Positions 13,789-42,787 of a stretch of 64,000 nucleotides of DNA are shown here, piece by piece; positions within the stretch are counted from its first letter, which is position 1, and each line of letters opens with the position of its first letter. This DNA comes from Bilabrum cf. latius (taxonomy: Eukaryota). The stretch spans positions 434,001 to 498,000 of the forward strand of contig OZ237754.1 in the NCBI GenBank assembly GCA_965178125.1, written 5' to 3'. Below the pieces are notes generated by a model that worked only from the letters and a program-made list of their open reading frames with translations, was not told the DNA's origin and made no database searches. The position numbers and the translations under genes are program-made.

Positions 13789-16191
13789 ATGCCTCGGCCA
13801 GGCAGTGGTACTAGAAGAGTGCCATGCAGCAGCACATCGAGTTTCTGGACTTGCGCATGCTGCTCGACTTCGGTGCTGTTCCGCCGGAAGCGACTGGGCG
13901 AGGTCCCACTAGATTCGAAGCTCCGGCAAACGTTAGGACTATGGGATTTAACTGCATTGGGTGTCGGTAGTACGCTCGGGGCAGGGGTCTACGTAGTTGT
14001 GGGAGCAGTAGCCCGGGAGAAGGCAGGTCCGGCGATCATTTTGTCATTCGTAGCTGCTGGGCTGGCATCAATTCTCGCCGGTTTAGGATATTCAGAGTTT
14101 GCTTCACGGGTACCACGGGCGGGCTCTAGCTTTATTTACGCCTTTTACTCAACGGGGGAGTTTGTGGCCTGGGTGACTGGCTGGTCCCTTGCTCTGGAGT
14201 ACATTATTGGGGCTGCAAGCGTTGCCCGCGCATGGAGCGGGTACACGAACGAGCTGACTGGCGGGTAGCTGGACCATGCCATCAATGGATGGGTGAACAA
14301 TCTTTAGGACGTGTGTCACGTAGATTTTGTTGCGTTTGCAGTCACGATTGGACTCAGCGCGCTGGTTGCATTCGGTGTGCAGGAGAGCACCACTTTGAAC
14401 AACTGGCTGACAGTCGTCAACCTGCTAGTTGTCGCCTTCGTCATTGTCGCTGGCCTGAGCCACGCATAGTTTGATAACTGGTCCCCCTTTGTTCCGCCTG
14501 AATTCGGATTCAACGGGGTGCTTAGTGGTGCTTCAACCGCATTTTACAGCTACATCGGATTCGACGTGATCGCCTCGAGTGCCGAGGAGGCCAAGCGTCC
14601 TGACGTGAACATCCCACTTGCCACACTTATCAGCCTCAGCGCGTGCTGCCTGGCGTACGTGGGAGTGGCGGCATCGGTCACTCTCATGGTTCCCTATGAT
14701 ACTATCGATGTGGATGCGCCGCTGTCCGCCGCATTCAACGCTAGGGGCATGCAGTGGGCCCAGTTCCTCATCGGGATCGGAGCAATCGCCGGTTTGTCCA
14801 CCTCCCTGGCGGCATCTTTGTTCCCCCTCCCCAGGATCATATATTCGATCGCACAGGAAGGCCTGCTGCCCCCTACACTGGCCACCATCAGTACCCGCAC
14901 GAACACGCCGCTGGTTGCAACGGCCGCGGCTGGCCTCTTCGTGGCCGTGCTTGCCCTCGTCCTCACGGTGGAAGTGCTGGCAGACCTCATGTCCGTTGGC
15001 ACTCTCCTCTCGTACACGGTGGTTTCCGCATGCGTGGTCGTGCTGCGCTACGAGAAGCCTAGAGAAGCGGAGGTGGCTCAGATGCAGGCCCTTAGGCTGA
15101 AGAGGGCAAAGGAAGATGCGGCGGAGGCCGCCGGTAAGACAAGCAAGACCGGGGGAAATGGCGGCAGGGCAGGGGAGGACAGCGACGAGACTGACTCGAG
15201 CGGCCGTCATTCCAAAGGCGGTGCGGCCGCGTTTGCAGGACGTGTGCCAAGGAATTCTTCGTACGGCAGCGTGGACTCCGCAGAGCGGCTGCTGGAGGGT
15301 CACGGTGCGGCCGACCCGAATACTGGATCCGGTGGATACCGCGCCAAGGACGGAGAGCATCCCACAAGAGAGCACTTTAAGCTGGCGGTTATTTTAGTCC
15401 TCGTGTTCGCCGGCCTCGTTTTGCTAGCAGGAGGCATCATGGCCACGGAGCTGGCAAGCACGACTGGGGGGCTGGCAGTCGCCGGGATCCTGGGCGGCTT
15501 AGCTGCGTGCATCATGCTGTACATGCACACGTTCATGCCGCAGGCAGACGTGAGCTACCTCAGTTTCATGACTCCATTCGCTCCGATACTGCCCATGTCC
15601 AGCATGGCCATCAACCTGTTCCTCATGTGCCAGCTTAGCAAGTTCACGTGGATGCAGCTGGCCGTGTGGAGCCTGCTGGGCGCCGTGCTGTACTTTCTCT
15701 ACGGCGTGGATGCGTCCGTGCTCGCAAAGTCGAGCACGAGCGGCTCGTTTCCAGGCGACAAAGACGATTTGGGGTATGAATATGGGGAGGGCGACGGGGG
15801 ATTGATAGGTCCCGAACACTCGATTCAGCGCGGAGTGTCGATGCCTGGCTGGGATGGCGAGCGGGACGGTGCTGGTGGCCGTGCTCCCAGTGGAGCAGGC
15901 GGGGGAGTGGCTGGTGCACCAGGTGCCGATGCGCTTCGTGCCCCAGCTACGGCCGACAGGACGGCCCCCATTTCGATTGGGTCGTTGCAGCGGCAGGGGG
16001 AGTGGCAGGGACAGGTGCAGCCGGGTGGATCCGATGGTGACACACGCGGTGGTAGGCAGCCCAGAGGCGGGCACGGACGCGGAGCGAGCAGCATGGAGAT
16101 GAGCTTGCACAGCGAGCATTCCAACCTAGTGGCAAGTATTGAGGACAGGGCGGGCACATCGCAGGGGAGTCCTCTGCTGGGCCCGTCGTGA
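13789..16191 (+). CDS. Cationic amino-acid transporter (APC superfamily, CAT/SLC7A1-4-like), 800 aa; TAG at 14266, 14305 and 14467
   Basis: Motifs LRQTLGLWDLTALGVGSTLGAGVYV, AGPAIILSF, YSEFASRVPRAGS, FYSYIGFDVIASSAEEAKRP and LADLMSVGTLLSY, plus C-terminal FMTPFAPILP. Transmembrane segments in 14269-14517 link the two ORF-track pieces across three TAGs; TGA stop. Confidence 0.95.
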
Positions 16192-19129: not shown

Positions 19130-19275
19130 CGTTTACAGCAATAACAACTCAGTCCAGCTGAGCGAAGAAGCATCTTCCGTCGGCACCACACATTCGTGCC
19201 ATGCACCTTACTGGGGTTGCGTGTACTTTTGGATTGGGAACCATCAATCAAACGTCATTGAGACTGCGCAGGGAC

Positions 19276-22200
19276 ATGCAAGCCGCATTGCTGCGCACGA
19301 GACATGTCATATCATTCTATAGGATATCAGACTCGCTGTAGTTGCAGTTTGTGCTTCGAAGGTATCGTAGAATGTGTACTGTATCTCGGGTGCAGAATGG
19401 TCTGCCCCACGTCATTGCCAGTTCGAGCTTACACAGACGTTTTTGCTCAGTACAATCCCAATCTCGAAATACTTCACTAGGTTTTGTCCATGAATTTGCC
19501 AGGGCTTGTCGTGATGCTGCGAGTGGGCTAGCACACGCAAGGTCGAGGGCTGGACGAGCAGCAGAGAGGCACGAGGGCGCTTCAGCCAGCGCCTCGGACG
19601 CCTCATTGCGATACCCACATGAAGTTTCTCCACAATCAGTTAGCCAAACCGAGCTGAAGGCGGTCGTTGAGACAGGGCGACAGCTAGAAGCGGTAGCCGT
19701 GGAGCAACTGCTGTCAAGTCAGCTGCACAGCCCAGCTGAAGAGTTTCGTAGCGCAGTATCGGCGCTATCCCCGCGTAACGGGCTGCGGACGGCTTCTGCA
19801 GACACGTTAGACAGTAAGACAAAGCGATAGCGACGTCTCGCGGCGGTGGGTGCCACACTTGGGCGGGCTGATGTGCTGTCAGTTGCCTTGCTGAAGCGGC
19901 TTGAGGATGCGGGAGTCGCGCGACTTGACCTTCGCGCCCCCGGCGATTTTTTGTCCGCAAATTCATCTGAATCTTTCTTGCGAAACGATAGGGACGCCCT
20001 CAAGGCGGGCAGCGATGGCTTGCAAAAGGTGCAGTCTGCGGAGGCCCCGCATGCTGATGCTGGCAAACCAGCGGCTGGAACAGGGCAGGACTAGTATGCT
20101 CAGCGACAGCTCCTTGATGACGTTGATTTGATGGAGAGAGTTGTCTCTAGCGCCCCCATCATGCGGCTGTCGCTGGCTCCAAAACTGCAGGAGCCCTCTC
20201 CTGGTACGAATGCGCAGGGCAGCCTCGGATCGAGCAGCAGGGAGCAGCAACCGCTTGACACGAGAGCAGCATCAGAGCCACAGGGCGTACAGAAAAATAA
20301 GCACCTCGATCCATCCAGCAGCGAGCCAAAGCTGAGAAGGACAGAGCCGCCGAAAGGAGAAAACCCGCGATGCCACTAGATGCAGTAGCGGCAACAGCAG
20401 CGGGTGGACTCCCTTGCAGGGGCATTAGCGCAGCTCACCGCCAGCGACGTTCACAATCATATCGTTACATACCTGCTGGAGAACGAAGCCCAGCACACCA
20501 GTATCAAAACTGTTGGAGAGAGATGGCCTAAAGCATTCAAGGAAAGGTTCGGTAAACTGTTGCATTTCCTTCAAGGCCACCCAGACGTCGTGTTGTTTGG
20601 CATTGCCAACGGTCGATAGATACACCAACAAGTGTTGCACCGTGAGAGGGTCTCAGCGAGGGACTGGTAGTTGCTTGCAGACGGCCAACCCATTCCTTTT
20701 GGGCAACAACACGGCAAATCTGTCCATCCTAGCATGACTGAAGCTGGACGGGAAAATGGCGTCACGCTGCCCAGGGACCCCAGCCCGGCACACGCGCAGC
20801 CCCTTGTTGGCAAACCATTCGCAGGCTAGGAGATGGACCCTGACGACCTCCTGCACGAAGTGGCCGTGCTGCTCGACGCTGCTGCCCGTATGCTCGCCAT
20901 GAGAGAAGTCAGCGGGAGGCAGCAAGCTGAAGCAGTCCTGCAGATGGTGTCCTCAGTGCACAGGATGGCTGCCTCGCTGAATTGCGTGGCGGGCGCCCTA
21001 GCCAGCTGGATGCTACCTGCTGGCCCGAAGTATGTCGCCGACCGGAAGCAGCACGAGGCTGTGCTCCGCCGTTCCAGCGCCATCGCTTCCTTGGCCATCC
21101 GGGGGTGCGCCCATGTGACGCTTGGGCTGCAGGACGCACTCCTGTCAAGTTGCGATGAGATCGGCATCGGCATTGATGCTGGCAGCGAGGCGTCGTGGCG
21201 ATTCGTGGATTGTGCTGCACTGCTCGAAGAAAGCATGCAATTCCTACCTGATGCTGCCAACACCAGTGCCTCGGACAAGGACGTATTGGATGCGCTGTCT
21301 CGGGCCAAGCATGCCGTGGCAAGTGCGAGCCTGGCGCTGACTGCCTCGTGCCCGGACTCGAGCTGGGAGTGCATGGCTCGGTCATAGCAGGCAGCTGCTG
21401 TCGCCAACGCTTTAAGTGCATGTGCTGCTGCTGGCGTGCTACCTGAAGGATCGCTTGCTGAGCTGCAGCAGGCAAATGTCGACTGGGGCGTGATTCATCC
21501 AGGAGCAGCTGTCAGCGACCACCCACTCGAGCAGGACGCGGGGTATACTAGCGATGGCGTCGCTCCGGTGAGCATGTTGACGCGGCTCATACTGCGCCCT
21601 CTTTCAATTGAAGCAACAGGAGATTCACGACCAGACGACGGTGGGTACGTATACGATCTGGATTGCGTGAGTACTCTGCTGGGTGCATCCGGTGCGTCAT
21701 CAGCATTCTAGCCTGCCTCTCGTCGTGCCCTGGAGCCCAGTTCCTCGGTGGCAAGTAAGAGGAGACGCAAAGCCAAACGACTCAATCCCTAGAAGGCTGG
21801 GCGAAAGTTGGCAAAGGAACGAGAAGATAAGGCAATTTTTCGCAAAGTGATCATGGAGCGCGACTTGCCTGCATGCGACGAGTCCACATTGGCTGCTGTC
21901 CGCCGAGTCTTGAAGCCATCTTCTCTGAATCGAATGCACAGGCTGTTGGAGGAGGCCTGCGGGCTCGGTGCAACCTGGTCCAGCCTTGACCGAGTGGCGC
22001 CCAATCGAGGGGGTGGAGAGTAGGCCCGTCAAGGCGTATTCTCGTGTGCTGCGGAGGAGAAGCTTGCCCAGGCGGAGCTAGAGGGCGGACTGGAGCAACT
22101 GATCAGATTTCCGAGCATCGATCAGCTCCTGACGTCGATCCGATGGGGTGCGCGCTCTTTGCGAGGACCGCATCCGTTCGCACCCGCCGTATCTACTGCA

Positions 22201-23160
22201 GCCCCATCAATTATGACTGGGTCATCAAGAGGCCCGTCACTAGCACCGAGGCCTCTGGACGGTGGCATGCGGAATCTGGAGCTCCTGTGCGGGCTCCTCG
22301 CGGTGGACCGCGAAGCATACCAGGGTCATTTCAGCGATCCGAGCTCCAGGGCTGAGCTGGAGGGTGACCCTGTGGGTAAGGCTCTCTGTGCCCTGCACGA
22401 CTGTGGGCTGTTCGACAGCTAGGGTCCGTTCAAGGACCCGTTGCATGCCCGGCGGCTGCACAGCACGGTGGCTGCCGCATAGTTTGCGGAGCGTTATGGG
22501 CCTAGCTGGGGCGTGGAGATCGGTGGGCGGGCATCGTTTGGTGACCGGACAGTCGGCGTTGCCGGTGCACTCGCGGACTCTCTCGCGAAGCATGCCGCCG
22601 CTGCCACGCCTGCTTCGCTGGTAGCATCTAGCTTGGTGGAGGGGCAGATGTCCGTCGAGAGCTACGGTTGGTGTGACGTCAGCAAGTACCCCAAGGGCGG
22701 GTTGTCCACTGCAGATTTGCTAGCCAGCGTGTCAGTGTCCGGGGGTGATACCTTTTTGTTGCACGATTGCAAGGATGAGGATGACCAGCATCGGCTGCTT
22801 GTGCCTGTGCGTGTCCTGCTGCAGGGCCGCGATTTCATCGTTTCTGGGCCTAGCAGGACGAGTTAGAGGCAGGGAAGTTCAGGTCTGCGAGCTGCTGTTC
22901 AGTATTCGTCCGTGGAATCGTCTCCCATGCAGGTGCGCTTCACGGCGGCTGAAACGTTGCGTCAGTCCATAGAGGCCAGGCTATCGGGGATTCCAGCAGC
23001 TGCGCTGCTGTGCAGATCGGTTGCGGCAGCAAATCGACTGGATGGGACCCTGTGGATGGGGTCAGAAGAGGAGGTGCAGCGTGTCGCGGACTTGTAGCCG
23101 GACCTGGAGCAGTCGCTTCAGGAGGAGCCATGGCACCGAGCCTTCAGGTCGCGGTAGTGA
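19276..23160 (+). CDS. Hypothetical ~1294-aa protein, probably mitochondrial; possible LOTUS/winged-helix-like segment and degenerate C-terminal RAP-like region; 17 TAGs
   Basis: Ten ORF-track fragments (19342, 19846, 20128, 20404, 20833, 21436, 21808, 22159, 22513, 22912) share one frame, separated only by TAG, and end TAG-TGA-TAA at 23155-23163. The N-terminus is Arg-rich and acid-poor (MQAALLRTRHVISFYRIS...LRRYRR). The start could be 19201 or 19372, and the domain calls are weak. Confidence 0.8.
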
Positions 23161-23394
23161 TAATTCCTTGGTGCAGGCAGCGCGATCCTCAGCAAATATC
23201 TGAACATACAAATATGCGGCTATTTGTAACTATGAATCCGGGTAAAGCATGCAGAATGGCACGAAACAACGGGATTCGGAGTAGCCCTACACAAATCCTT
23301 CGGGAAGCCTCGGCACTGCATGATTCGTCGGTTCGTCTACAGTCGGCCCATACGACTGCGCGTATTTACACCGTTTGATTCGTTTAGCAGAAGC

Positions 23395-24588
23395 ATGGCA
23401 GCTGTCGCTCAAGCAGGACAAGATTAGCAGTACGTTGACATCGGGGCAAACCTTTGCGATCCATAGTTTCAGGGTAATTACCGTGGTAAGCAGAAACACG
23501 ACGCTGATTTGGATGTAGTTCTAGATAGATCGTGGAGACAAGGACTGTAGGCTGTCATGATTACTGCTGGAAACTATGAAGAAGGCGTGGGGGCGGCCGA
23601 GCTAGCGAAGACAGACCACAGGCTGTACAGCACGATCGGCGTGCATCCGACCCGAGCTCTTGAGGTTCTCCGCACACCAGAAGCAGTAAAGGGCTCCTCG
23701 AGGAGCGCCGCCGAGCCAGCGGCCGGCTCAGACCTTAGCGTAGAGGACGCAGCAGATGCCTACTGGACACGAATGCGTACTTTTCTCGTCGAGAATGCTG
23801 TTGACCGCGAATCTCCAGCTACCCCCAGCGGTAAATCGGTATCTGAAATGGGGAGACCCACTGTCGTGGCAGTCGGAGAGGCGGGTCTTGATTATGCTCG
23901 ACTGGAGTTCAGCGATAAGAGCTCACAAATGAAGGTGTTCTTGGCGCAGATTGACATTGCGTGCGAGGCCAAGCTCCCCATGTTTCTTCACAACCGGGAA
24001 ACCGGGGGAGACTTCCTGTCAGTCATGAAAGAACACGCCCCTCGGATCGTCACAGAGGCCGGCGGTGCGGTCGTCCACTCGTTCGACGGCACGGCAGAGG
24101 AAGCAGCGGAGCTCATCGGGCTGGGGCTATACATCGGGATCAACGGGTGCTCGTTGAAGACGGAGGACAACGTGAGGGTGGCTGCGGGGATTCCTCTGGA
24201 CAGGCTGATGCTAGAGACGGACTGTCCGTGGTGCGGCGTCAGGCGAACGCACGCGGGGCACAAGCACGTCAAGACGCAGTTCGATGTTGTGAAGAAGCCC
24301 GATCGGTTGAAAAAGGGAGATAACAAGGGGGTCAAGGACAGGTGCGAGCCCGCCCACATTGTCCAGGTGGCTGAGATTGTGGCCGGTGCGCGCGGGTGCC
24401 CCGTACAGGACGTGGCAGAGGCGGCGAGGCTCAATGCCATCAAGGTCTTCCTGCCGTGGCTTGCAGACGAAGTGCCGAAGACAGGGACTGGCAGGGATGC
24501 AGCGGACGAATCCAGAGCAGAAGGTTCACGTGAAACATCAGAGGAGAAGGGGCCTGCTGGCTTGGCCGAGTCTGCTACCTTGAGTTGA
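23395..24588 (+). CDS. TATDN1: TatD-family DNase (TATDN1-like), 397 aa; TAG at 23425, 23464 and 23548
   Basis: N-terminal YVDIGANLCDP*FQGNYRGKQKHDADLDVVL is recovered only through TAGs; other motifs are STIGVHPT, AVGEAGLDYARL, LPMFLHNR, VVHSFDG, GINGCSLKT and MLETDCPWC; TGA stop. Confidence 0.96.
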
Positions 24589-25440: not shown

Positions 25441-28400
25441 TCATGCAGACGCGTGCTACGGACGGACTCCTGCCCGTTCAGCGCCACTCCCAAAGGCGAC
25501 CCCAGCAGGTGGTTTCTTGCCGCTCTTGAGTTCATCCGACGCCGAGCGGTGCTTCTTGTGGACCGGCTCGCAGGCGTACGATGCACGCGTACCCAAAGTA
25601 CCTGACGACCGAGCAGTCACTGTCGCTCGTTGCGTAGTGGCGGAGCCGTCTGCCAGGTCCATGACCACTCTGGCGACGATCTTGCTCCCAACCACCCACG
25701 CATGCATCTCATCGTCCACACGACGGAGGCTCTGCACTAGCAGAGGGGTGTCGATGGGATCGCACAGCATCTCCACTGGCTGCGAGTGATGCTTTGATTT
25801 TGATTCGCTGCCAGCACCCCTCTGTCTGGCCAACTGAGGGGTCAGACGGTGGCCGAATCGCCCGCCAGCGAATGGACCCAGCTGGTCGACGAACCCCTTC
25901 TGCTGCCTCCGCATGAGCTGGCTGCCTCGCTTGCTCATCCACTGCGCCAGCTTGGGATAACACCCGGGCATCTTGCGATGGTCCGCAATGATGGGGTCGC
26001 ACCGCCTGCCCAGGCGCACAGTGCCGCCGACCCACGTACCCATGTCCCTGGCGTCATCCCGGGCACTCGGCTTGCAGGTTGCTTCCACAAACACGCGCGC
26101 GATTCGCTCGTTCCACCTGTCATGGTCGGCCGACGCACCATTGCCGTTGAATACGGCTGCATCGGCGCCGATCTCGTCCTTGAGCTGCTCCACACGGGCG
26201 AAGATATCCGCCTAGGCGGCTCCTGCAGGCAGCACGCAGGTAAGGAAACCACCGCTAGAAAGAACAGCAACGAGGTCGCCTCCAGCCGACTCAAGGCTCA
26301 AGCCAGCCCCAGCACCAGCGCTGTGCATCTGTCCGTCCGTGTCGTCCTCTATGCTGTGTGCGCCCAGGCTATCGCGGCCTACGTCGGCGTCGGCGATACT
26401 GCCGCGTTCCGGGTCCAAATCGATGCCGCTGTCCTACGACCCCGCAGAGTTGGATGAGCTCTCCCGCACCCTGCCCGACTCGGCACCCCTACCCGCGGTA
26501 CTGCCGACTGGTCCAACCTTGGGAGGCTTCGAGACAGACAGCCTTCCGACCGCGGTGGCCGTGGCTGTTGAGACGCTAGTGCCTCCGAGTGCCCCCCCCC
26601 ACCTCGAGGTGTTACCACGAGGACTGTCGCTCGGAGGGGTGCCATCATTCCCAGCCTGCCTGCGTCTACCAGGGAACAAGACATCGTCGTGGGTGAGTTC
26701 GTCCGCAGGACGGTCAGTGTGCACGGGGTTGGGCTCCACCGGCTCTGTCCTCGAGAGCAGCGTCGCGGCCTGCTCTGCCGACAGGCATGCGGGTTCCTCG
26801 TCCCACTTTGGGAGGCACACAGTCACCAGGTCGACCGCAGTGGTGCGGGCAGATACCTTCTTGCCCGAGCGCAGCATCACGAAGGGGAGGCCTCCGCGAT
26901 AGGCAGCTTCGGGATCAGCAGACGACTTGCAGTCCTGCAGCCAGCTGCTTACGGCCTCCATCGCCTCAACGTACTCCTCTGGGCTAAGGACGCGGCTGCT
27001 CCTCTAGCCGCCCATTCCAGGCTCCGCGACGAGGCCAACGAACGGGTAGGACCTCTGCACGATGAATTTTCGGCCCATGCACGCAGCGAACACTGTGGCA
27101 GTGTGGTAGGGCAGGTGCGAGGGCCCGCCCTCGATCAGGTACTGCATCCCACCCCTGGCAATCGTGGCCTGGCCCGCCCCGCCCACGCGCACGCCCGCGA
27201 TGTGCTCCATGGCAGGTGACACCGACACCTGGTAGCTGGCGAAGAACTCGGATCGGGCCGCGAGACCGGGCGGGACGCCTGCCCCCTCAGGTTCCGCCCT
27301 CACCGCTTGTGCTGAGGTAGAGAAGGACGAAGAGGATGAAGACGACAGAGCCATAGCACGCCCTGCCGATCCACCCGCGCTCTGTCCTTGTCTTCCCATG
27401 CCGCTAGCAGCGGCAGCTGCCCCCAGTGCTGCAGCTCCACCAGCAGCCGACACGTCCAGGTCAGCGGGGTTGACTCCGTTGCCCTCGATCGGGAACTGGT
27501 ACGAGATCGCCGGGATGGGGCACGCACCCAGCACTGTCTGGATGCTCTCCTGACCGATGGCCGAGCACTTCTTGCGCAAGGACTCCCGGGCCCTGCTGCC
27601 GCCCGTGTCCGCGCCTGAGGAGCCTTCTTTTTCTTCCTTGCAGGGCGGCACCACGCCGGCCACGTCCAGCCAGGCGTCTGGATTGTTGGAGATCTGCGAG
27701 CAGGTGCCGCAGATGGCCCTGATAGCAGAGCACATCGCCCTCGCGAAGGCAGACTGCAAGGACACCGGGAGCACCACGCCAGCCACCCCGCGGCCACTCA
27801 GGTGCTCGCCGGCCCTCGCGAACGCAGAGACGAGATTCTTCACAAAGTTCTCGACGCACTGCATACTGTCGGTTCGCATGGCCTCGATGAGCGCGGCGCG
27901 CGCCTTCGCGATCGTCTCCTGGTCCGTCGGAAGCTCTCGTATGGTCGACTGCAGCCTGGCGAGCTCGGCCCGCTTCGGATCGGCGGGAGAGTGCCGGCTC
28001 GCAGCTTCCCGGCTTCGTTTGGCTCCGATGATTCCATCAGCGGGAAGCGCCTGAGCCGTTGCAGGCTGTGCTGGCTGCGCATTGGGATGGCAGCCGTCGA
28101 CGACTTGCGCCTGGTTGCCCACGGCAAGCGTGAAGGCAGGCAGTCCCTGCGGGACGGGCGCTCCTGCGGCAGAGCGAGACTAGAATGATATATCTTGCTC
28201 TGTGCCGTAGAGCTGATGAACCGTCCCAGGCTGCTGCCAGGCTCGTCCCAGGAAGCCTGACCCACCGATCGCCCCAGGCATGGCAGGCGGTCCTCCGAAA
28301 CCAAACTACCCACCTGAAGCACCCAAGCGGTAGCTTGCTGCAAGGCCAGGATGGCTTGCCATACCCCTGAAGTCATCATGCGTTGTAGCATGACCCAAAT

Positions 28401-29500
28401 TCGCGAAACGAGACAGCTATGACAGCCCGGACACCGGAGGGCTGCCTTGCGAAGCTCCCATGGGATTCTTGGACGATCCTTTCAGCGATTGAAGCGCCAG
28501 CACGGCATCCGCCTGAATATCTTGATGCTATTGCGCACCTTCATCTGGTCTCTGGCTGAAAGTTTGGTCAGGTACTCCCGATGCGACCTCAGGAGGCTCG
28601 GCGACCGCTTTGTGAGCCGTCTGCCCTCGGAAACCCATCGCATGGACCCCAGCTGTGCCATAGGCTGGACCATATCCGGTTTCCACACCAATTCTGCCTT
28701 GTTGAGCCAGCTGACCGGCTGGTAGCTTGCGGTATTGCATGTCAGGGGATGAGAATCCGCCGCCACACCGGCCACCTCCAGCCACTGGAGCACCGGGGGT
28801 TGGGAATCGTGGCACTGCATCTGCCTACGATAACATGTGAGGCTACAGTCCGCCTAGCCCGCGAGGATTCTGCGATTCATAGGGTCCCGGGGTCCTAATG
28901 CGATCTCCCCTCGAGAACTGTCCCTCACAGTACGCATCGCCACCCGACGCTCCGAATGATCTGGAGCCACCGAACGGAAAACCGTGTAGGTTTGAAGGCA
29001 CAGACGGCTACGAGCTGAGCATATCTGCCGGGCCTGTTGACGAGGCGACTCTGCCCGTCGCAGTCTCCGCGATTTCCGCTGGCTTCCTTGCGAGCCATTG
29101 TCGCCCATCAACAGGCTGCTGGGCAATCTAAGCTTGCATACTGTAAACTTCTTCGTGCTATTCTGGTTTCAAGCCTGTCGATGACCGCGAGTTCTTCTCT
29201 TGCGCCGACTTGGAGAGGTTGAAGTCGCCTCGAAGACGTCGGACAGCGCGGGCTTGGCGCTTCAGCGTCTCTTCCTGGTGCTCTCGCCGCCGCAAGTCGG
29301 GCAGCTCCTCGCAAGGTATGCGCATCTTGAGGCATCTCGCGCATGGTCGCGATCCATCGCACCGTCTCTGCGGCAGAAGCGGACGTGGAGGAATAGGAAA
29401 GGCAACAGTGGGAGCCAACCACAATGAGCGACCCGTTCTTTCGGGGTCAAAGAAGCCATCCCACCTTAGCTTTAGCGCATCCTATGCATGCTCTATTCAT
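25441..29500 (-). CDS. Zn(II)2Cys6 binuclear-cluster transcription factor, possibly with PAS-like C-terminal region; complement(join(25441..29367,29465..29500)), 1320 aa; about 13 TAGs
   Basis: Exon 1 MNRACIGCAKAK plus exon 2 RRCDGSRPCARCLKMRIPC gives C-x2-C-x6-C-x5-C-x2-C-x6-C. ORF-track pieces 29158, 28528, 27004, 26434, 26212 and 25456 are one frame joined by TAGs; TGA at 25441. Confidence 0.88.
29368..29464 (-). other. Spliceosomal intron (97 nt) splitting the Zn2Cys6 cluster
   Basis: AAG|GTGGGA donor and a pyrimidine-rich CTGCCGCAG acceptor; splicing completes the six-cysteine motif. Confidence 0.88.
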
Positions 29501-30076
29501 GTTTCGGAGTTTCTCGTTGAGTCTGCCGCACGAGTGGCGCTGCGCTAGTTAAAATCGGGAGGATGAGGATTGTACCGGTTGCCTGCGGCGGCATCTCACA
29601 GCGGGCAGTCCTGCACGTGCCCACTGTGCAACCGCTGCTGGGCCGACCACAGCGATTGCAGGAACCAACCACCGGTCAGGTGTAGCTTATTAGTGCATTC
29701 ATGCGGATTTTGTGCGATCAAAATACTAGTTGTAGCACGGAATAGCAGCGTAAGCAGCAGGAAGCTTGTGGTGGATGCAGTCGGTAGCCATCAGCTGAAC
29801 AGCGCCAGCCCGATATACGGTTGCAAGAGGCTTCAAAGGGATAACATGTACTTACATGCAAAGTTAAAGCCTGCCAGGCTCGCTGACCCGTCCAAGCCAC
29901 GTTGCGTTGCGCTCGGCCGCCAGCGGATGTGTCGCTTGCTTGCGGACCAGCAGGACAAAACAGCGGAACCAGGTCGCAACATGAATGATGCGCGGCGCCT
30001 CTTTGGTCGCGACTTTTCCTACTGTTCCTGGCGCTATTCTGACATTGTCACTCAATTTGAGGTAGTTTTATCCAAC

Positions 30077-32185
30077 ATGGATACTTACCTATGCGGTATG
30101 ATCAAGACTGGTGTATTAGGATCAGAAATAAAGTCTCACGGAAAGTCGGTGTCTCTGCCCATTGCTTTCGGATCCAAGCACAGCCTTTTGCAAGTTGCAA
30201 ACGCTCCAGCCAACACGTTTGGGGTCACAAGCGATGGAAAGTTGATCTCTGTTGGACAAGGATCCCATGGTAGGGCCGGAACTGGCAGCTACAAAACTGT
30301 AGAGCGCTTCACGCCTATCCGACCCGCGCTAGCATCACGTGTTCGATTCGTGCAAGTTTCTGCTGGCGGATGGCACGGGCTAGCACTTGCATCCGACGGA
30401 ACAGTCTATCAATGGGGTTATGCATTAGCCACGCATGGCAACCAGAGGATGAAAGACCTCCTGCAGCCCACGCGAGTGCCAGATCCTGCGTCAGGAACAG
30501 GACCATCGGCTTCCAGCGACACCAGCAGTGCCACCCACCAAGCAATATAGGTTACCTGTGGAGATAATTGCAGCGGATATATCACAAGGGATGGGTCTCT
30601 GTTTACGTGGGGCTGCGGCCCTCTCGGCATCCGCCCGAGAGCATCAAAGCGAGCATCGAGGCAGCCACCCCACAAGATGACTGCAGAGGTGCCTACAAAG
30701 GTGCACATCGGAGCCTCTGAGCGGAGCAGGAGGACCGCAGCTGCAGCAAGCCACGTCTCTCACGGAGAGGACGCCGATGCATCGATTCGAGTGGTGCAGG
30801 CAGACCTCTCGCAGCTCCACGGCGCGGCGGTCACCGAGTGCGGGCGCGTGTGGATATGGGGCTCCAACCAGAGCGGGTGCTTGGCACTGGGCTCAAGTAG
30901 GAGCAAAACGCTACCCAACGGGTCCTATGGACACATGGTGTACGCAGACCCAGCCAATTGCCTCGATGATGAGTCAACGGCTGGTGCTGCCGGTGATGCT
31001 GGGGCTGCTGCTAAAGGCGCAGCTGGCGGCGCGGGCGCGTTGTCTTTGTCTGCAGATCCATCAACAGCCGGAGTGGGAGAATTACCAGCCGGTGCATCAT
31101 CGGGGGCGGGTACTGGAGGATCCACTGCCGCGTCCTATCCTTCGGGCCCCTCCTCGGGCTCTCCATCGTCACCTTCACAGTCACTGGCCGTTGCCCTGGC
31201 CCCGCGCAGGATGGGGAGGGAGCGGTCCCTGTCGCACGGTGACGCGACGGGCAGGTCGAGCCTGCATGTGGCTCACGGAGGAGACGAGCATGATGCACAT
31301 TTCAAGGACGAGGACAGTGAGGGGGAGGAGTGCGGCGAAGGGAAGAAAGACCCATCGGCAAGCGCTGGTGATGCTGCTGCCTCGTCTAGGGGAGGAGGTC
31401 ACCGAGGAGGGGCCGCTGAGGGGAGGCCATCCACGGCAGAGGACCGCAGCACGGGGTTGGGTGTGGACGCGGGCGAGCGGAGTTCTGGTACAGGTGCTAG
31501 TGTTGGCAAAGAGGCCGGCGCTTCAGGCGCTTCAGGCCGAGCAGCCACGGGCGGTGACACGTCGGGCGGTTCGGGCGCCGGATCAAGCGGCACCAGCACC
31601 AGCCTGAGACCCTTTTTCCTTCAGGTGTCCTGCTCCAGCGGCTCGCACCACCCATCCACTCTTGCCGTGGATCGAGAGGGCTACCTCTGGGGGTGGGGCT
31701 CCAACTACAAAGCCAAGCTGGGCGGGGGCGGGTACTGGAAGCATGGAGACAAGGACGCGTACCCCGACCCGAAACCGATGCCAAGGGAGTGGTTCGGCGG
31801 GGCGAGGGTTGCCAGGGCTGTGTCGGGTGGGATCCACAACGCCTGCGTGACGGAGGACGGCGTGGCGTACTCGTGGGGATGCGGCTCCGATGGGAGGATG
31901 GGTCACCCTGATGCGGTGAACTTCCGGTACCTGTACCGCGAGACGATGCCCAGGCCCGTGGAGTGGGTGTGCTCGGACGCGAAATACTCGCCGGGGGGTT
32001 CTTCCGGGAGCAAAGGCCGCAGGACGGTGCCGTTGGGAGGCGGGAAAGGGGAGAGCCCTAAGGGCTGGGTACGGGTGTATCAGCCCGCCGGGCCGGGACA
32101 GGGCCGGGCCGTTCTCAGGCGGTGCGTGCGGCTGACGTCGTCATACCGCAACATGGCATTTGTTTATGACGATGGCAAGGCCTGA
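30077..32185 (+). CDS. RCC1/BLIP-II beta-propeller repeat protein, about 702 aa; TAG at 30548
   Basis: Repeats FVQVSAGGWHGLALASDGTVYQWG, AI*VTCGDNCSGYITRDGSLFTWG, VVQADLSQLHGAAVTECGRVWIWGSN and SGGIHNACVTEDGVAYSWGCGSDGRMG; TGA stop. Start uncertain (upstream in-frame ATGs back to 29846). Confidence 0.92.
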
Positions 32186-32284: not shown

Positions 32285-32427
32285 GGTCTGACGCACCTCA
32301 TGAGTCATGCACAGTAGCACGCAGTGGCACTGGTCTGACGCACCTCATGAGTCATGCACAGTAGCACGCAGTGGCACTGGTCTGACGCACCTCATGAGTC
32401 ATGCACAGTAGCACGCAGTGGCACTGG
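32285..32427. repeat. Perfect 47-bp tandem repeat, three copies
   Basis: GGTCTGACGCACCTCATGAGTCATGCACAGTAGCACGCAGTGGCACT starts at 32285, 32332 and 32379. Confidence 0.97.
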
Positions 32428-34707
32428 CCAGCTTTGCTAGACCATCTCGGTTGGACTCTCTTCGCTGTCCGGGCCCCAGCCGAGCTGGACCCCTCTGAGG
32501 TACAACGCCTGCAGCACTCTATTTCCGCACGCGATCTACGTGTTGTTCTAGCGGTGAAGGCCTGAGACGTCGAGCCAGGCCCCAACACTTACTTGAAGAG
32601 GAGTCCGTCCGTCATGTAGACCTAAGCGCTCACATGGCGGAAGCCTCGCACACAATTTCTCAAGTGCGAGCTTTGGGCTGGTGCTCCACTCCAGGAAATG
32701 CAGTAGAACCGCCCCGTCCATGTGCAATCTGGCGTTTGTGACATGGGCTGGCTAGCTGCAGGGTGAAGCCAGGTCCTCGGACTGCAACATACCCTTAGTT
32801 GGGGCTACTGGTACCGCCCCGCTTCCTGCGTGCCACGGGCGACACTATGCTCCTGACAAGGCATGCCACTACTTTAGTGCAGGGTCACTGCTGGTAGCTA
32901 GATTGGCGTTATGGATGTTGGCCCATTGGACCAGGTCAGTGCGAGCCATGTACTTTGTGATCTTGCCTGCGGCCTTGTAGCGCTCCTTGGTGTCTGCCGG
33001 CTCGACTATCACCGGCCAGTCCCACGGCCGGCCTTGCTACGCCAACTAGCTTCGGGCGGCGGACATGTCAACCTCAGCTGCCACTCGACGAGCTATCTCT
33101 TGCGATCGGATGGGCGCAATTGCGGAGACCCAGCCTGCTTGCAACCCGGCATTCTCAAGAGTGGCTCTGATTGCTTCCTCCATGGGTGAGTTAGAGCCGA
33201 CACAGCGAGCAATGGGCATGCTCGGGTGCAGCAGGAGCTCTTCAGGCGGACACACTGTGAAGTTGCTTTCAACCGTCGGCTGCAGTGAAGCCAGTGCGTA
33301 CCGATTGGAGAACTCGATCGATGCGGGCAGCAGCTCACCGGCCGTGGTGGCATGCTCATCTGCAGCGGCTGCCAATTTCAGTACGCTGGTTACGTTCAAG
33401 TACTCGTCGAGGTCTTGGTGCACCATCCACTCCGTCAGCGGTTTACCGTACTTGAATAGAAAATGCTGCTGGGCGTGTGGCTAAGCCTCACCAGCGTATG
33501 CATCGTTATCGAGAGAGTGAGCATTATACATTCTGAATGGCCAAGACAGTTCTAGAACTACGGGCTCCTATGAAATCGTCTGGCGCACTTGCGGCAAGCA
33601 CAGCTCAGAGGCCTCCAGTTGCTGCTCGTGGCAAATGTCGCTGCCCATGAGGCCTGCTCCCAGCATCGACGGCGCTTTGGGATGGGAAGGGCCGAGGGGC
33701 CAGACAGCCTTGCAGTATTCATCCCTGGCAGCAGCTGCAATGCAGGCACCTTGCACCCATTCGTCGTCGTTTCGATACGCCACGAGCGCCTCCAGCCCCC
33801 TTGCTGCGTGATACGCCGCCCACGTCGGGAGGTACCTCTCCCTGTCCTCGAGTAGCATCATGGTGGTTGCAACCACGCGGTGGGGCCTCGGGTCTGCTAG
33901 GTGTACATCGTTCGAGGATTGCGTGCCGGTCCCTGGGCTTTTTCTGTGTGCGGTGGATGGTGCGTTTTTCTCTGCCCGAGGCCACAAGCAGTCCCATCCC
34001 GGCGTTCGGACGCACTCATCAGGATTCTCGCGGAAGGCGGAAGCAGCAAAGTTACCTCCTGGTCTGACTGGGGCAGCGCCCATCTACTTCTGCAAAAACT
34101 CGACGTGGAAGAGCCGGAGAGGGTATGTCCGCCCGGCAAACGTGACGCACACGTTGATATACGCCTCAACCGGCAGGTCTCGTCTCAGGTACGCCGGCAG
34201 TCTCCATCTGATCACCTTGGCGGACAAAGCTCGCTAGGCCCTCGGTGGGACAGTACGCATAGACACTGGCGACCCCAGGGAAACCCATTTCGACTCTGCT
34301 CGTTCTAGCCTTGCATACACCAGGAGACCGTCCCAGGTGAAGGGAGCGCGACGGTAGGACGGCAGAATCGCAAACACTTGGCCATCACGGGCAAATGTAT
34401 CGTAGATCAAGTAACGGCGACCAACATTTGCGACATTCAGCCTTGCATCTATTGCCTCGGCTGGCGGCGGATCACCCAGCCGCCACGCACATGATTGCAG
34501 GGGCACCCCGCCTGGACCGCTCGAAAGCTCAGACTAAAGCGCGCCATGTGCAGAATCTGAACACAACATGATTGGTCGAACTCGATGGTACGGGTGACCG
34601 GAATTCGATAACATGCTGGACTAAGTTGCATCAACTACTGCGCCACCGGCGCATAAGCTCTACACAATCACCAGCGTGGCAAAGGCAGCAAGTACACTCC
34701 CTAGCAT
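32392..34707 (-). CDS. Glycosyltransferase family 92 / GT-A-like protein with N-terminal signal or anchor, 771 aa; about 15 TAGs
   Basis: MLGSVLAAFATLVIV* N-terminus with an in-frame TAA just upstream; motifs RYLPTWAAYHAARGLEALVAYRND, GEA*PHAQQHFLFKYGKPLTEWMVHQDLDEYL (DxD), TKYMARTDLVQWANIH and VLLHF; TGA at 32392. Confidence 0.82.
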
Positions 34708-35093: not shown

Positions 35094-38000
35094 TCAAAGT
35101 TTCGCGGCTGAACTACTGGCAGTCGCCAGATCGACCGGAGAGAACAGGTCAGCCTCCATCCAATGCAATGTCTCTCTCACAGAAGCTGCAAAATGCTCCG
35201 CCAAGCGCTAAGGCACGTGGTGCCCAGACCCCGAAGCGGTCTCGATTACCCCCCTCGTAGATGCCGAGAGCCTGCCAAGTGCACCTGCGTCTCCCACCGG
35301 CGGGGCAGTCGCGCTCACGTGGAAATACAGCGTGGTAGGCAGCACGAAATAGCTCACTCCGATGCCAGGCACCGCGGTTGGGCCGAACCCACCGCCCAGC
35401 GACGCGCAGGCAGGCAGCTCGAGCCCGTAGTTTTCCGCCACTAAAGGGGTCTGCGAGGTCGACAGCTCGAAAGGCAGCTGTGCGGCCCTGCTGTACAGCA
35501 GCGCAAGGCCCGGGTGCTGCGGGCCAACGCCTGCAGCAGCGCCTGCTCCGCTCATGGCAGCTATTTGCATGGCCATGAAGTGCCTGTCCACCCCTTGTCC
35601 CAGCCCCGCCTCGGTCGAGATGACTTTGTGACGCTTGCATGCCGCCTGGAACAGCTGCACCAGACTTTCTCGCGATGGAATACCCTTGGCGTCCGGCTGT
35701 GCGGGGTTCGCACCAGTCGACGCCTGCGATCCCGCATGAGCGACACCACCGCTGCTTCCAGTCGCGACCATTCGCGCAATTGCGGCATCTACGAACACCT
35801 GGGCCTCAGTAGAGCAGCTGCGGATCGTGTCCGTCCTGCCCAGGTGAAACCGCCGCGTGGAGGCAGATTCGTACGTAAGCACAGGGCGCCCAAAGTAACG
35901 CCGCGCCGCGACCTGAAGCGCCATCTACACCAGTGCGTCGGGTGAGCACCGCGCCCTGTGCTTAACTGCCTCCTTGCCCCACCTCAACCATGTCAGCACG
36001 CGAATCCCAACAGAGGCGGCAAGGTCTCTGAAAGATGCAGCCGCTCTTGGTACGGTGAGAAGAAGCCCCCCACGGTTCGTGTCTTCATCGGCAGATATCC
36101 CTGCAGCTGCACCGCTGCTGCTGCCACGGCGACTCGAAAGGGCGATGGTGCCAGATGATGCCATGTCCGACCCTCCGGCACCCGTAGCGCTCTTGGCAGG
36201 CTTGAAGCCGTCCCATTTCAGCCGAAACGGGGCAAAGGGCCCGAGGCTCCTTTTCGCTGCAACGAGCTCTGGCTCCGTCAGAGGCCGGAAGGAGCCGTCA
36301 ACTGCAGCACCATCCTCCGGTAAAGTACTCTAGCTCTCATCTTGGTGCTTCTCTGCACTGGCGCTGGCAGCACTGGCTGTGCCATCCCCGCTCCTGTCTC
36401 CCTGAGCTGACGCCTTGCCGCCGGTCAGTTGTCTGGAGAACATCTTGTGCGCCAGCTACTCACCGAACCGCGCCTTAGCAATACTAAAGAATCCTTCATT
36501 TTCTCTCGAAGCCCACTCTGGGTCGTAGGTCCCTGCTGGCGCGTGCCTGCCCTCGTGCACCACCACGTGCTCCACCACGTGGGACGGTATCGGTGCGTCC
36601 GCGGGCGTGTGCTCGATCGAGGTTCCACCTCGTCCGTTCCGAAACACCACGAAGTTGAACACCGCGTCAGACCAGAGAGAGTGGCCGTTGCCATGCAGCA
36701 TCCAGCGCACGTGTGCGTTCGGGTCGCCCTCTGGAAGCGGGGCCGCGTCGGGAAGGGAGATCACGAAGGCGCTCGATTCGATCCTCCTGAGGTTGTCCGC
36801 ATTCCTGGCAGACTCCTGCTGCAACGCCCGCCTGGCCCTCGCCCACCTGTCTCTCGGCATTGTGGTGAGCAGAGCGATGGGAGGACTGTCAGGGTGCGTC
36901 CACTACGACGGCTTGCCACCGACGCAGCTGAAGCCCACCGTAGATCCTGACTCGCTTCCGTAACCCTCCACCTTTGCCTCCATGGAAGTGCTGCTTCCAC
37001 CACCCGTTGATCGTGACGAGTGGCGCGACCTATGCGGCAGAGCTTCTTCCGCCCTTGTGCTGCTTCCCCCGCTGGACCTGGAGGCATACGGGGACTCGGT
37101 GCACGCCACGCGCACCGCAAGGTGAATCTCCTCGGGGGTGGCTCGCCTGCCGCCACGCTGCACCGGGACGACCCAAATCGCCGTGCCCCGCAGCACAACG
37201 ATATCCAGATCGCCGAGACGGCGCAATAGGGGTTTCACCGTGCGGGAAGGCGTGCCGTCGCACCCAGGCGGAGAAGTCACCAGGCAGAGCCTCCTTGACT
37301 CCTCAGGTCTACCAGCCGTCTGTCCTGCAGCAGCCTCCTGTACAGTCCCCTTTTGCTTGCTCTTTGCCGCAGGCTCCTTCACGATGGAGGGGCGGGTAAC
37401 CTGGATGATGTCTTCTTTCTCCCCTGGCAGCCGGAAACAGCCAAACATGTACCTGTAGCCGTCCATGCAAACGGGCAGGAAGCCACCTTTGGGCGGAGGC
37501 TTGCTGGAGAATGACCCCGCGGGTCTGCTGTCGAGCACCCAGGTGTGACGAGTGACCTTTTGGGGCCTGGTTTGAGCCCCCTTCACAGTGGGGGCCCCTC
37601 CCAGCAGCATGGGCGGGAGTGATTGCGTGTCGATCCGGTCCATCATCTCAAGTGCGGCCCCTGCCATGCCGGCGGCTCGCGCCGCGGGGTCCCTCGTCCT
37701 CGCACCCATCCAGCACATCTCGGTGGAATAGAAGGACGAGTGCACTAGCAGCGGCTTCCGTCCCCTTAGGTAGGCGAACCTCAGCCACGTGTCCCGCAGC
37801 CAGTTGCCCTGCCCACGCATCGAGGGCACGCGCGGAACCTTCGATTCCAGGAAGCGTGCTAGCGAACCTGCCCCCAGCGCCTGGGCAACTGCTCGGACCA
37901 TCCTGCCCGCCAGAGCCGGCTCCAGGGAAGTGGAGCAGTCCCCCCCGGGGTAGAAGCATGATATTGAGGACGACCAGCCTTTGGACATGCCTGCCGCCGT

Positions 38001-38669
38001 GGGTGCGCCGGTCCTGTCGGGGGCACCTGCCCGGGCCATCCAAGAGCTTTCCGCCCTGGGGTGCTCGCCCCAGCGAATGCGAGCAGCTTCCTCGCCAAGC
38101 ACCTGTTCCCTGGCACTGCACAAGGCGGCATGCATCACGGTGGCAGCCGATGGCCCAGCCGCGCTGCCCCCCAGAAATCGCTTCGACAGCTCGACAAGCT
38201 CCGCGTGCTCCTCCGGCGCGACTACCGGCTGTACCGTGCGCAACCACCGCTTCACGGTCTCTCTCGGGTTTGGTAGGGGCAGCGGTGGCAAGAACCGCTA
38301 AAAGTCGAACAGCCTTGCTCGGTCAACGTCCCAGCCCAGGTAGTTCACGCAGAGCCAACGCGCTGCAGCCAGGTCAGTCAGAGATGCCCGTGGACTGGCA
38401 GTCCTACCCAGCAGTGCAGAGACACTTACCTCTGCTGCTATGCGTAACGCAGATGGAACAGCGATGATTCCAGCGCCGACGGCTAGGGAGCCACCGACTG
38501 CGAGCATGGAAGGAGGCTCTGACTCAACCGATGCGCTCCCAGATCCTGATTCTTTGTGTAAAGCACGCCTTGCTTTCGATTTTACGGTTGATACGCCATT
38601 TGATACCAATGGTAAATCAGCAACCGTTGGGTTCGCCTGCATATTACCAGGAGATCGATTCCCGTCCAT
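35094..38669 (-). CDS. Choline/carnitine O-acyltransferase (CPT1/CROT-like) ending in a PTS1 signal (-AKL), 1191 aa; TAG at 38298, 36903, 36456, 36330, 35925 and 35208
   Basis: Motifs LFDF*RFLPPLPLP, NWLRDTWLRFAYL, WMLHGNGHSLWSD, catalytic EHTPADAP, SPDALV*MALQ..LTYESASTRRFHLGRTDTIRS, GQGVDRH, LSTSQ and GGFGP; ends SSSAAKL-TGA. Confidence 0.95.
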
Positions 38670-41203: not shown

Positions 41204-42787
41204 TCACGCAAATCGCACCAGCAACGGGCAGTTTGCCATCCCCAGCTCTGACATGCTAGAATCTGTCTTAACCTCCCCTTTGCTGAGCATTATACCACTC
41301 CTTGCGCCTAGCTCAATCGTGTATGCCGGCACCACCACGGCCGCCGCCGCCCCCACGGCTGGCCCACCGCCCCCCGAGTCAGAGCCCATTGGAACAGAAC
41401 TGCCAGCGCTCCGCACGCCGCCAGCCCTCTTGGTGCCAAATCCAGCATCCAACAGGAGTGCATCTATCCACGCGAAGCACTCCTCGATCGTGCTGCCGCT
41501 GGCAAAGCGTCCCGTTGCTCGCTTCGGCACTGGAGCACCTGCTCGAGCAGCACCGAGCACAGCAGCTTCAGCGGAAAGCGGCACAGCACCACCGGCCGAC
41601 AAGCCGTCCCAAAGCCCTTCAAATCGTGCCTGAACCCTCAACGAACCTTCGCCGACTCCCGAAGCTCCCAACGCGGGCGCTGCCGCTCGGATGGATGCCG
41701 CTGCCGCCGCGCATTCCCCTGGTTCCGCAACGACAATCGCAGGCGCGCCGGGCTCCGATGACTCAGGACCTGTCAAGTCAACCACCTTGCCGCCTGCCAA
41801 TCCATCGGCCCCCATACCCACACCCCCAGACACAGGCCCGGCCCCATGCATCCCGCCGAAGCTGCCGTGCCCTCCGGCACCGCTCTCTCTTGCTCCCCCC
41901 GCCGACAGGGACATTGCGAGGGCCATCTGCAGCTCATCGTCGTCATCATGTCCCCCCTGCATGGCTGCCTGCCCCCCAGCGGCTCCGAATCCCCCACTGG
42001 CACCCGATGCCTCGTACCCCATGCGTCGGTCCGAATCGGCGTCGGTTTCGGCCAGCGACGCACGCAGAGCCGCCTCCAGCTCTGGGTCTGATGCGGCTCC
42101 CCCGCTCGCGCTCCCACCGCCGGAGGTTCCCCCCGCTGGCCTTGGTTTCGATTTGGACGCGAGCAGGGCGGGGATGGAGTGCCACGAGCCCGGGGGGCCC
42201 TCGCTGGTCGCCTCGAAGCTGGGAGGGAGCTTGCCGGTGATCACGAACAAGTTCCAGCCCTCGTTCCGGGCTTGACCCAAGAATGCAGCTAAGTAAAAAT
42301 CACTGAGGTGCTGCGGCTCCTTCAGCAATGAGTTAAGGTTCCAGTAGTGCCCGCCAATCCTCCGAATGCAATACCAATGGTCGCTTGAGTTGAGAATGAA
42401 GGCCTGGTACTTGGTTGGGTCTTTCATGCACGCATACACGGTCTCAGGCGACTCATCCATTCTCAATGAGGGGTATTTCTTGTTGAAGGCTTCCTGCAGA
42501 ACTCCTTGGCTGAAGTTGCCAGCAGAATCGACGTTGAAGCTGTCTTCAGCCAGATACTTGAGCGCATCCGACGTGTCTGCTCCCTAACTAACCATGAGCT
42601 ACCGCTCTCGCTCATCGAGCGCCCGAGCGTACCCTAGCAACTCTCCGACAGTAAATGCTGGAAACTGCACCAGATTATTCACACAATGCTGCGCGCATAG
42701 AGCGGCTACTTGCTTCTCGTGATAGAGCCACGCTGCCTTGCCGCTTGGACTAGAACTTGTTGAGCCTGAGCTGCCGGCTCCCGCCAT
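41204..42787 (-). CDS. ATXN3: Ataxin-3-like deubiquitinase (Josephin domain, two UIMs, C-terminal UBX-like domain), 527 aa; TAG at 42599 and 42584
   Basis: LYHEKQVAALCAQHCVNNLVQ (catalytic Cys), LDERER*LMVS*G, NVDSAGNFS and DHWYCIRRIGGHYWNLNSL (His, Asn); UIMs DPELEAALRASL and DDELQMALAMSL; TGA stop. Confidence 0.94.

Follow-up and report, generated by a model that had tools for sequence, protein, structure and literature searches.

Evidence for a UAG-only glutamine code in the nuclear genome of a bicosoecid stramenopile, approached through an RCC1-like gene

To our knowledge, UAA and UAG nearly always change meaning together. Codes in which UAG alone has come to specify glutamine are reported for Iotanema spirale (Panek et al. 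2017, PMC5304391; PMC9161772) and for Hartmannula sinica, Trochilia petrani and Protocruzia tuzeti (McGowan et al. 2024, PMC11687900). These codes are described from transcriptomes or incomplete assemblies, and in the available text of the two main accounts the corresponding glutamine tRNA was predicted rather than found (PMC5304391, PMC11687900). The locus presented here belongs to an assembly of 48.6 Mb in 111 contigs and was studied within a window, by which we mean the whole stretch of 64,000 nucleotides that was analysed (C20:434001-498000, 54-67% GC). Judged from its sequences, the nuclear code of this organism very probably reads UAG as glutamine and retains UAA and UGA as terminators (NCBI table 15 type), and the TAG at position 30548 of the window would be one ordinary glutamine codon among many.

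The gene that carries this codon (30077..32185, plus strand) encodes an RCC1-like seven-bladed beta-propeller of 702 aa in a single frame with one in-frame TAG and a terminal TGA. The plus frame extends from 29567 to the TGA at 32183, and the TAG at 30548 is the only one in it. The product is matched by the Pfam families RCC1, RCC1_2 and WD40_RLD, and a Foldseek search with its AlphaFold model recovered RCC1 (E 3e-16) and UVR8. Seven blade-start strands are modelled, at residues 37, 91, 156, 239, 514, 578 and 683; the mean pLDDT of 45.5 is low because of long disordered insertions, with the blades mostly at 60-85. Fold and repeat motifs are shared with the RLD propellers of RCC1, UVR8 and HERC, from which the protein differs in its long low-complexity insertions, one of them between blades 4 and 5. 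Otherwise it is an unremarkable protein, of interest here only for what it shows about the code.

The first-pass annotation had confined the repeats to 30180..31700. The gene continues beyond these limits to the TGA at 32183..32185, its true stop, within a few residues of which the orthologues P0460 and P0494 end. Both ends of the gene agree with orthologues, and the C-terminal blades are common to the P0460/P0494 group. Translation probably starts at the ATG at 30077 and not at that at 29846, because the first positions covered by contigs of X1 and X2 are 30032 and 30040, respectively, and the orthologues start at the former ATG as well. Contigs from all four runs (three studies) bridge the TAG at 30548 with no change and no gap. 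Those of X1-X3 also join across the GT-AG intron of the neighbouring gene (29540-29855) with the TAG unchanged, while X8 reads through this intron. The X1-X3 contigs probably derive from RNA; none of them is recorded as such, and we take them so because of this one spliced joint. A 47-bp repeat is present in three perfect copies at positions 32285-32427, in the interval that separates the RCC1 stop from the end of the convergent gene.

The five motifs on which the earlier reading was built, LLQVAN (30185), FVQVSAG (30347), AI-TAG-VTCG (30542), VVQADL (30791) and FLQVSCS (31616), all fall into one plus-strand frame. The codons in their glutamine slot are CAA in blade 1 (30191..30193), CAA in blade 2 (30353..30355), TAG in blade 3 (30548..30550, residue 158), CAG in blade 4 (30797..30799) and CAG in blade 5 (31622..31624). 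A profile made from the TAG-free RCC1 repeats of this genome aligns the TAG with the glutamines of FVQVSAG and FLQVSCS, and the model places the codons of blades 1 and 4 in the same column; residue 158 is the third in its strand, as are the glutamine residues. A register shift that would move the TAG out of this blade-start column is not observed, since repeat profile and modelled strand starts both keep it there. The four glutamine-bearing sister repeats are confirmed, but the propeller has two further blades (31808 and 32123), not listed in the first-pass annotation, that carry arginine in this column (AGG, 31814..31816, blade 6; CGG, 32129..32131, blade 7), so that glutamine is found in four of six sisters instead of four of four.

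Among 150 external RCC1 proteins with 2,683 repeats, the blade-start column is glutamine in 21% and alanine in 40%, and a held-out external repeat with four glutamines among six sisters is itself glutamine in 290 of 437 cases (66%; the windows overlap). The nearest orthologue, P0370, has glutamate at the TAG site, P0460 has glutamine and the P0494 group glycine. Because of the arginine in two blades, the glutamate of P0370 and the external frequency of 66%, the RCC1 protein alone is insufficient: it suggests that TAG is glutamine, and the claim that one protein fixes the assignment without outside data was too strong. The assignment itself holds, by the evidence of repeats throughout the genome and of dynein decoding. 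The idea of an internal control, insufficient within this protein alone, works elsewhere in the genome, in near-identical tandem repeats on contigs C14 and C28, where TAG and CAR alternate at the same site.

Genes with in-frame TAGs surround the RCC1 gene. The divergent gene upstream (25441..29325, minus strand), in the 5' part of which the above intron lies, has 13, and the convergent frame downstream (32392..34707, minus strand) has 15 in 771 codons. Two long open frames are those of 2,563 codons with 26 TAGs and neither TAA nor TGA (47421..55112, minus strand) and of 1,319 codons with 17 TAGs, of which the last is the final sense codon before TGA (19201..23160, plus strand). Pfam matches identify an amino-acid permease gene with three TAGs within the domain (13789..16191, plus strand), a carnitine/choline acyltransferase gene with six, one of them within the best Pfam stretch (35094..38669, minus strand), and a Josephin-domain gene with two within the domain (41204..42787, minus strand). 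A TatD DNase gene, supported by Pfam and homologues, has three near its N terminus (23320..24588, plus strand). Its columns (Met in 103 of 120; Asp 41, Glu 39 and Gln 17) were rejected as a test of the residue, the TAGs standing at variable, uninformative positions. The TatD protein of a relative (P0002, 86% identical) starts at the first methionine after the position of the third TAG, as expected if that relative has the same code. At the edge of the window (2-9940, minus strand), a protein of at least 3,313 aa with TIG, laminin-G and F5/8 domains has just two TAGs.

TAG is used as a sense codon on many contigs. Reading through TAG opens frames in the window that reach 2,617 codons and 26 TAGs, and reading through TAA changes almost nothing. 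The standard code gives 7 frames of at least 1,000 codons over 464 kb of C20; with TAG as sense there are 57, with TAA 7 and with TGA 18. All stops inside RCC1 matches of the genome (33 of 128 matches) and inside dynein AAA_6 matches (12 of 28) are TAG. The 19 dynein heavy-chain loci hold 273 TAG, 394 CAA and 2,291 CAG in 62,836 codons, with no TAA and no TGA. In-frame TAGs are also found in the genes for eRF1, PRP8 and GluRS. In 161 aligned RCC1 repeats from fetched loci, which are not independent of each other, 23 of 36 TAGs stand in two glutamine-rich columns that make up 5.4% of the cells: nine in the blade-start column, where Gln accounts for 45%, and 14 in the GQLG column, where it accounts for 64%. 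None stands in the invariant Gly, Trp, His and Leu columns of these repeats. TAA or TGA as a sense codon was rejected, the dynein codons as well as the frame counts in the window and on C20 being contrary to it.

TAG is a minor glutamine codon, with about 9-13% of the total, and is commonest in genes with weak codon bias; over 79 genes its share of the glutamine codons correlates with that of CAA (rho 0.56) and inversely with GC3 (rho -0.58). Its use varies from 1 to 48 per ~3,300 codons across the dynein paralogues (L088-L106). The PRP8 gene (L087, on C24) is a frame of 2,791 codons with four TAGs and apparent long low-complexity insertions in its N-terminal part. Long and TAG-rich tandem RCC1 arrays characterize an expanded family of large proteins (L081-L085, on C14, C28, C3, C2 and C8), in which the arrays are followed by apparent Ig-like (TIG) segments; these are candidate surface proteins.

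Gene ends identify the terminators. For nine genes (seven dyneins, eRF1 and RCC1) comparison with homologues or paralogues allowed the end to be judged: TGA terminates six dyneins and RCC1, TAA terminates eRF1 and one dynein, and TAG terminates none. In a set of 96 C20 frames picked by codon score, 85 end with TGA and 11 with TAA. The best surviving alternative is that UAG is mostly glutamine and yet terminates in some genes or near their 3' ends, i.e. an ambiguous or context-dependent code. Its basis is a late excess of TAG, the frequency of which per 1,000 codons is 10.4 over the final 10 codons, 9.0 over codons 11-25 and 3.5-6.0 farther upstream. Six of 109 C20 frames have TAG in their last two codons (6 in 218 codons). 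After paralogue pairs were counted once and the set was cleared of three doubtful frames and of the other scattered loci, 13 of 127 frames have a TAG among their final 12 codons, where 7.7 are expected (P 0.045). An eRF1 that retains GTS and E55, and a single CUA tRNA gene, would fit residual termination as well. However, the excess in the last two codons is not replicated in 120 kb of C6 and scattered loci (0 in 134 codons), and the late excess is inflated by paralogue pairs and wrongly picked frames. Nor is TAG depleted before the stops of 109 + 67 frames, which were picked by codon score and not by annotation. The tails behind late TAGs are weakly coding (0.039 per codon, against 0.101 for tails behind CAR and -0.077 for 3' non-coding sequence). 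Relic tandem stops, with TAG directly before TGA, were seen on C20, were not replicated on C6 and the other loci, and were dropped as a candidate. The remaining excess may reflect some residual UAG termination or weaker selection near gene ends, and we regard an ambiguous code as a small chance beside plain glutamine decoding.

The identity of the amino acid was inferred from a profile of 120 external dynein homologues, orthologues of one paralogue only, against which every codon was scored. As a control, 61 of 61 sense codons decode as in the standard code. For TAG (140 of the 273 in scored columns), glutamine scores 8.3, followed by Glu (-174.9), Lys (-193.1) and Ala (-207.9), a lead of 183 log units over Glu. 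A profile of the paralogues only gives Gln 96 and Glu -68. In doubly conserved columns (90% outside, 70% among paralogues) the 20 TAGs fall on Gln 16, Glu 3 and Val 1 times, and CAA as control falls on Gln in 20 of 27. In externally conserved columns 19 of 42 dynein TAGs are in non-glutamine columns; CAA mismatches there in at least 24 of ~53, and CAA and CAG mismatch similarly to TAG. One outlier was noted in the GluRS gene (L161), in which a TAG directly before the EFSRLN motif stands where the GlnRS paralogue has Trp. A metagenome scan for DNA of a close relative that would allow comparison at codon level returned 79 loci, none of them close (best identity 71%).

The genome contains one gene for a tRNA with CUA anticodon (L005, C23:907607-907679), an ordinary tRNA of 73 nt that scores 69.8 bits to RF00005 and whose canonical cloverleaf is the minimum-energy fold. 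No second copy was found in the genome. A pattern for CUA and UUA anticodon loops matched only this gene among nuclear genes, so that no nuclear UUA tRNA was seen; both counts are lower bounds, because 63 of 780 candidates were scored and the pattern misses intron-containing tRNAs. The genome further encodes tRNA-Gln(UUG) and, in two genes, tRNA-Gln(CUG). Overall identity was tried as a guide to the origin of L005 and gave no clear parent (matches of 75: Ser 51, Tyr 50, Gln(UUG) 49, Glu 48, Gln(CUG) 46). The D arm, T loop and G73 resemble tRNA-Gln(UUG), the acceptor stem with C1:G72 resembles tRNA-Tyr, and the anticodon is one base from that of Tyr. A single GlnRS gene was found, whose product aligns normally with the human enzyme. 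The CUA tRNA would be charged with glutamine by this enzyme, and would pair with UAG and not with UAA. Two further features of the tRNA complement were noted. Eukaryotic tRNA-Ile usually has the anticodon AAT, and two nuclear tRNA-Ile genes here (L011, L075) have GAT. Genes that resemble tRNA-Met(CAT) and are similar to each other are dispersed over several contigs, at least six in number (L025, L067, L071, L078-L080); one of them adjoins Pro- and Arg-tRNA-like genes, and the set is possibly a repeat-borne or organelle-derived family.

That UAG might stand for another residue (Glu, Leu or Tyr), or that its tRNA is partly mischarged, draws on the glutamate of P0370 at the RCC1 site, the leucine column at the second TAG of eRF1 (see below), the C1:G72 pair that marks eukaryotic tRNA-Tyr together with the near-Tyr anticodon, and the Pyl label that ARAGORN gives to L005. 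We consider it highly improbable. In the dynein profile Tyr and Leu are outside the top four, and the TAGs avoid the invariant Gly, Trp, Leu and His columns of the RCC1 repeats. Eukaryotic Tyr identity is reported to require C1-G72 and A73 (PMC9976931), so the G73 of L005, also found in the tRNA-Gln(UUG) of this genome, argues against charging with Tyr. The Pyl label is based on the anticodon alone; the tRNA is an ordinary 73-nt cloverleaf and the TAGs follow glutamine.

The release factor itself uses the codon. The eRF1 gene (L001) has four exons, ends with TAA and carries two in-frame TAGs in the region for the N domain. The first (human position 44, numbered here by offset from published motifs) aligns with Gln in 90 homologues; the column of the second (human position 69, hence L69Q) holds Leu 93, Gln 6 and Asn 1 times. 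Changes in the N domain are G29A, N30D, S60V, L69Q, N129S and K130H, and GTS, E55, S70 and YxCxxxF are retained. Other eRF1s share L69Q (6 of 100) and N129S (8 of 106), so that S60V and K130H are candidates of higher specificity. The substitution L69A is reported to increase UAG read-through slightly more than that of the other stops, N30A is described there as without effect, and N129 has been proposed as the reader of a third-position G (PMC4381064). The yeast counterpart of N129S showed enrichment in a screen for improved insertion of non-canonical amino acids, according to PMC12440015. The changes in the N domain may have cost eRF1 most of its hold on the third-position G, with GTS, E55 and S70 kept. 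A regained UAG termination would truncate eRF1 itself, because its N domain contains two UAG codons, and this would help to lock the code in. Another eRF1 (P0204) has S60V and L69Q as here and groups weakly (0.667) with this organism on a long branch; its source may be another variant-code organism.

The weakest alternative keeps the standard code and takes the TAG for a local nonsense mutation, for an assembly error or for a codon that is spliced or edited out. It could account for a single TAG in one gene and for the GT behind the TAG at 30548, which looks like an exon end. Unless base calling erred systematically, it retains next to no probability: TAGs number in the hundreds in long conserved frames of many contigs, with neither TAA nor TGA among them, the contigs of all four runs cross 30548 unchanged and ungapped, and eRF1 would itself be dead.

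Two genes place the organism next to Cafeteria, among the bicosoecid stramenopiles. The best named match is Cafeteria roenbergensis (eRF1 69%, dynein 63%). A FastTree dynein phylogeny of 47 rows, with 46 of 120 homologues (all clearly named ones listed and the closest others), places it as sister to Cafeteria and one further protein (support 0.999), and a grouping with Cafeteria is found with weaker support (0.871) in a 34-row tree of eRF1. There, a sequence that bears the label Symbiodinium sp. KB8 (P0129) groups with the Cafeteria-like ones, which points to contamination of that record by a bicosoecid. Besides the 1,700-nt tandem array on C12, the assembly has another, dissimilar 18S gene, 1,802 nt long (L034, C95:6099-7900). 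It looks dinoflagellate-like and probably derives from a co-assembled contaminant or prey. The mitochondrial contig (L107, C111:1-10000; 38.4 kb in total, 24% GC in the first 10 kb) has TGA inside, and TAA at the end of, all seven long frames and includes a UCA tRNA. For Cafeteria a change of the mitochondrial code is likewise reported, with TGA read through and a UCA tRNA (PMC6972860), and its nuclear code appears to be standard, judging from that account and from full-length NCBI proteins.

A literature search of mostly open papers returned no instance of an altered nuclear code among bicosoecids or other stramenopiles, and the accessible text of PMC11412368, PMC10120064, PMC13466520 and PMC12153298 mentions none. 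The UAG-only code described here is probably the first for stramenopiles, and we lean towards the view that the change is unreported in this group. A more ambitious combination would join an unreported first stramenopile change in a GC-rich genome to a CUA tRNA of Tyr origin and to a route in eRF1 that leaves GTS and E55 intact; as a whole we hold this to be unlikely. In this combination the tRNA would have arisen from tRNA-Tyr by one anticodon change and would have gained Gln identity via G73 and a Gln-type D arm, and eRF1 would have dropped UAG via S60V, L69Q, N129S and K130H, its own synthesis depending on UAG read-through. Codon capture driven by high AT content would not have been the path, because the genome is GC-rich.

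The case adds an independent UAG-only origin, in a GC-rich genome with TGA as the main stop, and brings together tRNA, eRF1 and GlnRS in one assembly next to Cafeteria. The pair formed by this organism and Cafeteria makes the discrimination of UAG from UAA by eRF1 testable, which bears on amber suppression in engineered cells. Gene calling under the standard code would truncate most long genes here, as the drop from 57 to 7 long frames in 464 kb of C20 indicates.

Among the described systems, Iotanema spirale is closest in its code, with UAG as glutamine and both UAA and UGA kept as stops. It is a fornicate known from its transcriptome, for which the CUA tRNA was, in the available account, predicted and not found, whereas the tRNA gene is in hand here. 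Its eRF1 carries T32G within GTS, which is intact here, and the main stop here is TGA (85 of 96 frames), in contrast to TAA. Hartmannula sinica, Trochilia petrani and Protocruzia tuzeti likewise use table 15 and keep UAA, as inferred from conserved columns, but they are ciliates that prefer UAA as stop, while the present organism is a GC-rich stramenopile; in the first two a suppressor tRNA was not found, in contrast to the CUA tRNA gene reported above. As in most such reports, for which protein-level proof is described as lacking (PMC11687900), the glutamine assignment here is read from sequence. Context-dependent codes of the Condylostoma/Blastocrithidia type show depletion of the dual codon just upstream of stops, a depletion that is absent here. 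In table 6, in which UAR is glutamine (Tetrahymena, hexamitins and ulvophytes; PMC5304391), a CUA tRNA reads UAG as glutamine as is proposed here, but UAA is not a sense codon in this genome and no nuclear UUA tRNA was matched in it. The rhizarian exLh (PMC5304391) parallels the present case in reassigning UAG only and in a change at Leu69 of eRF1. There UAG is leucine and the change is L69A; here the codon is very probably glutamine and the change is L69Q, itself encoded by TAG.
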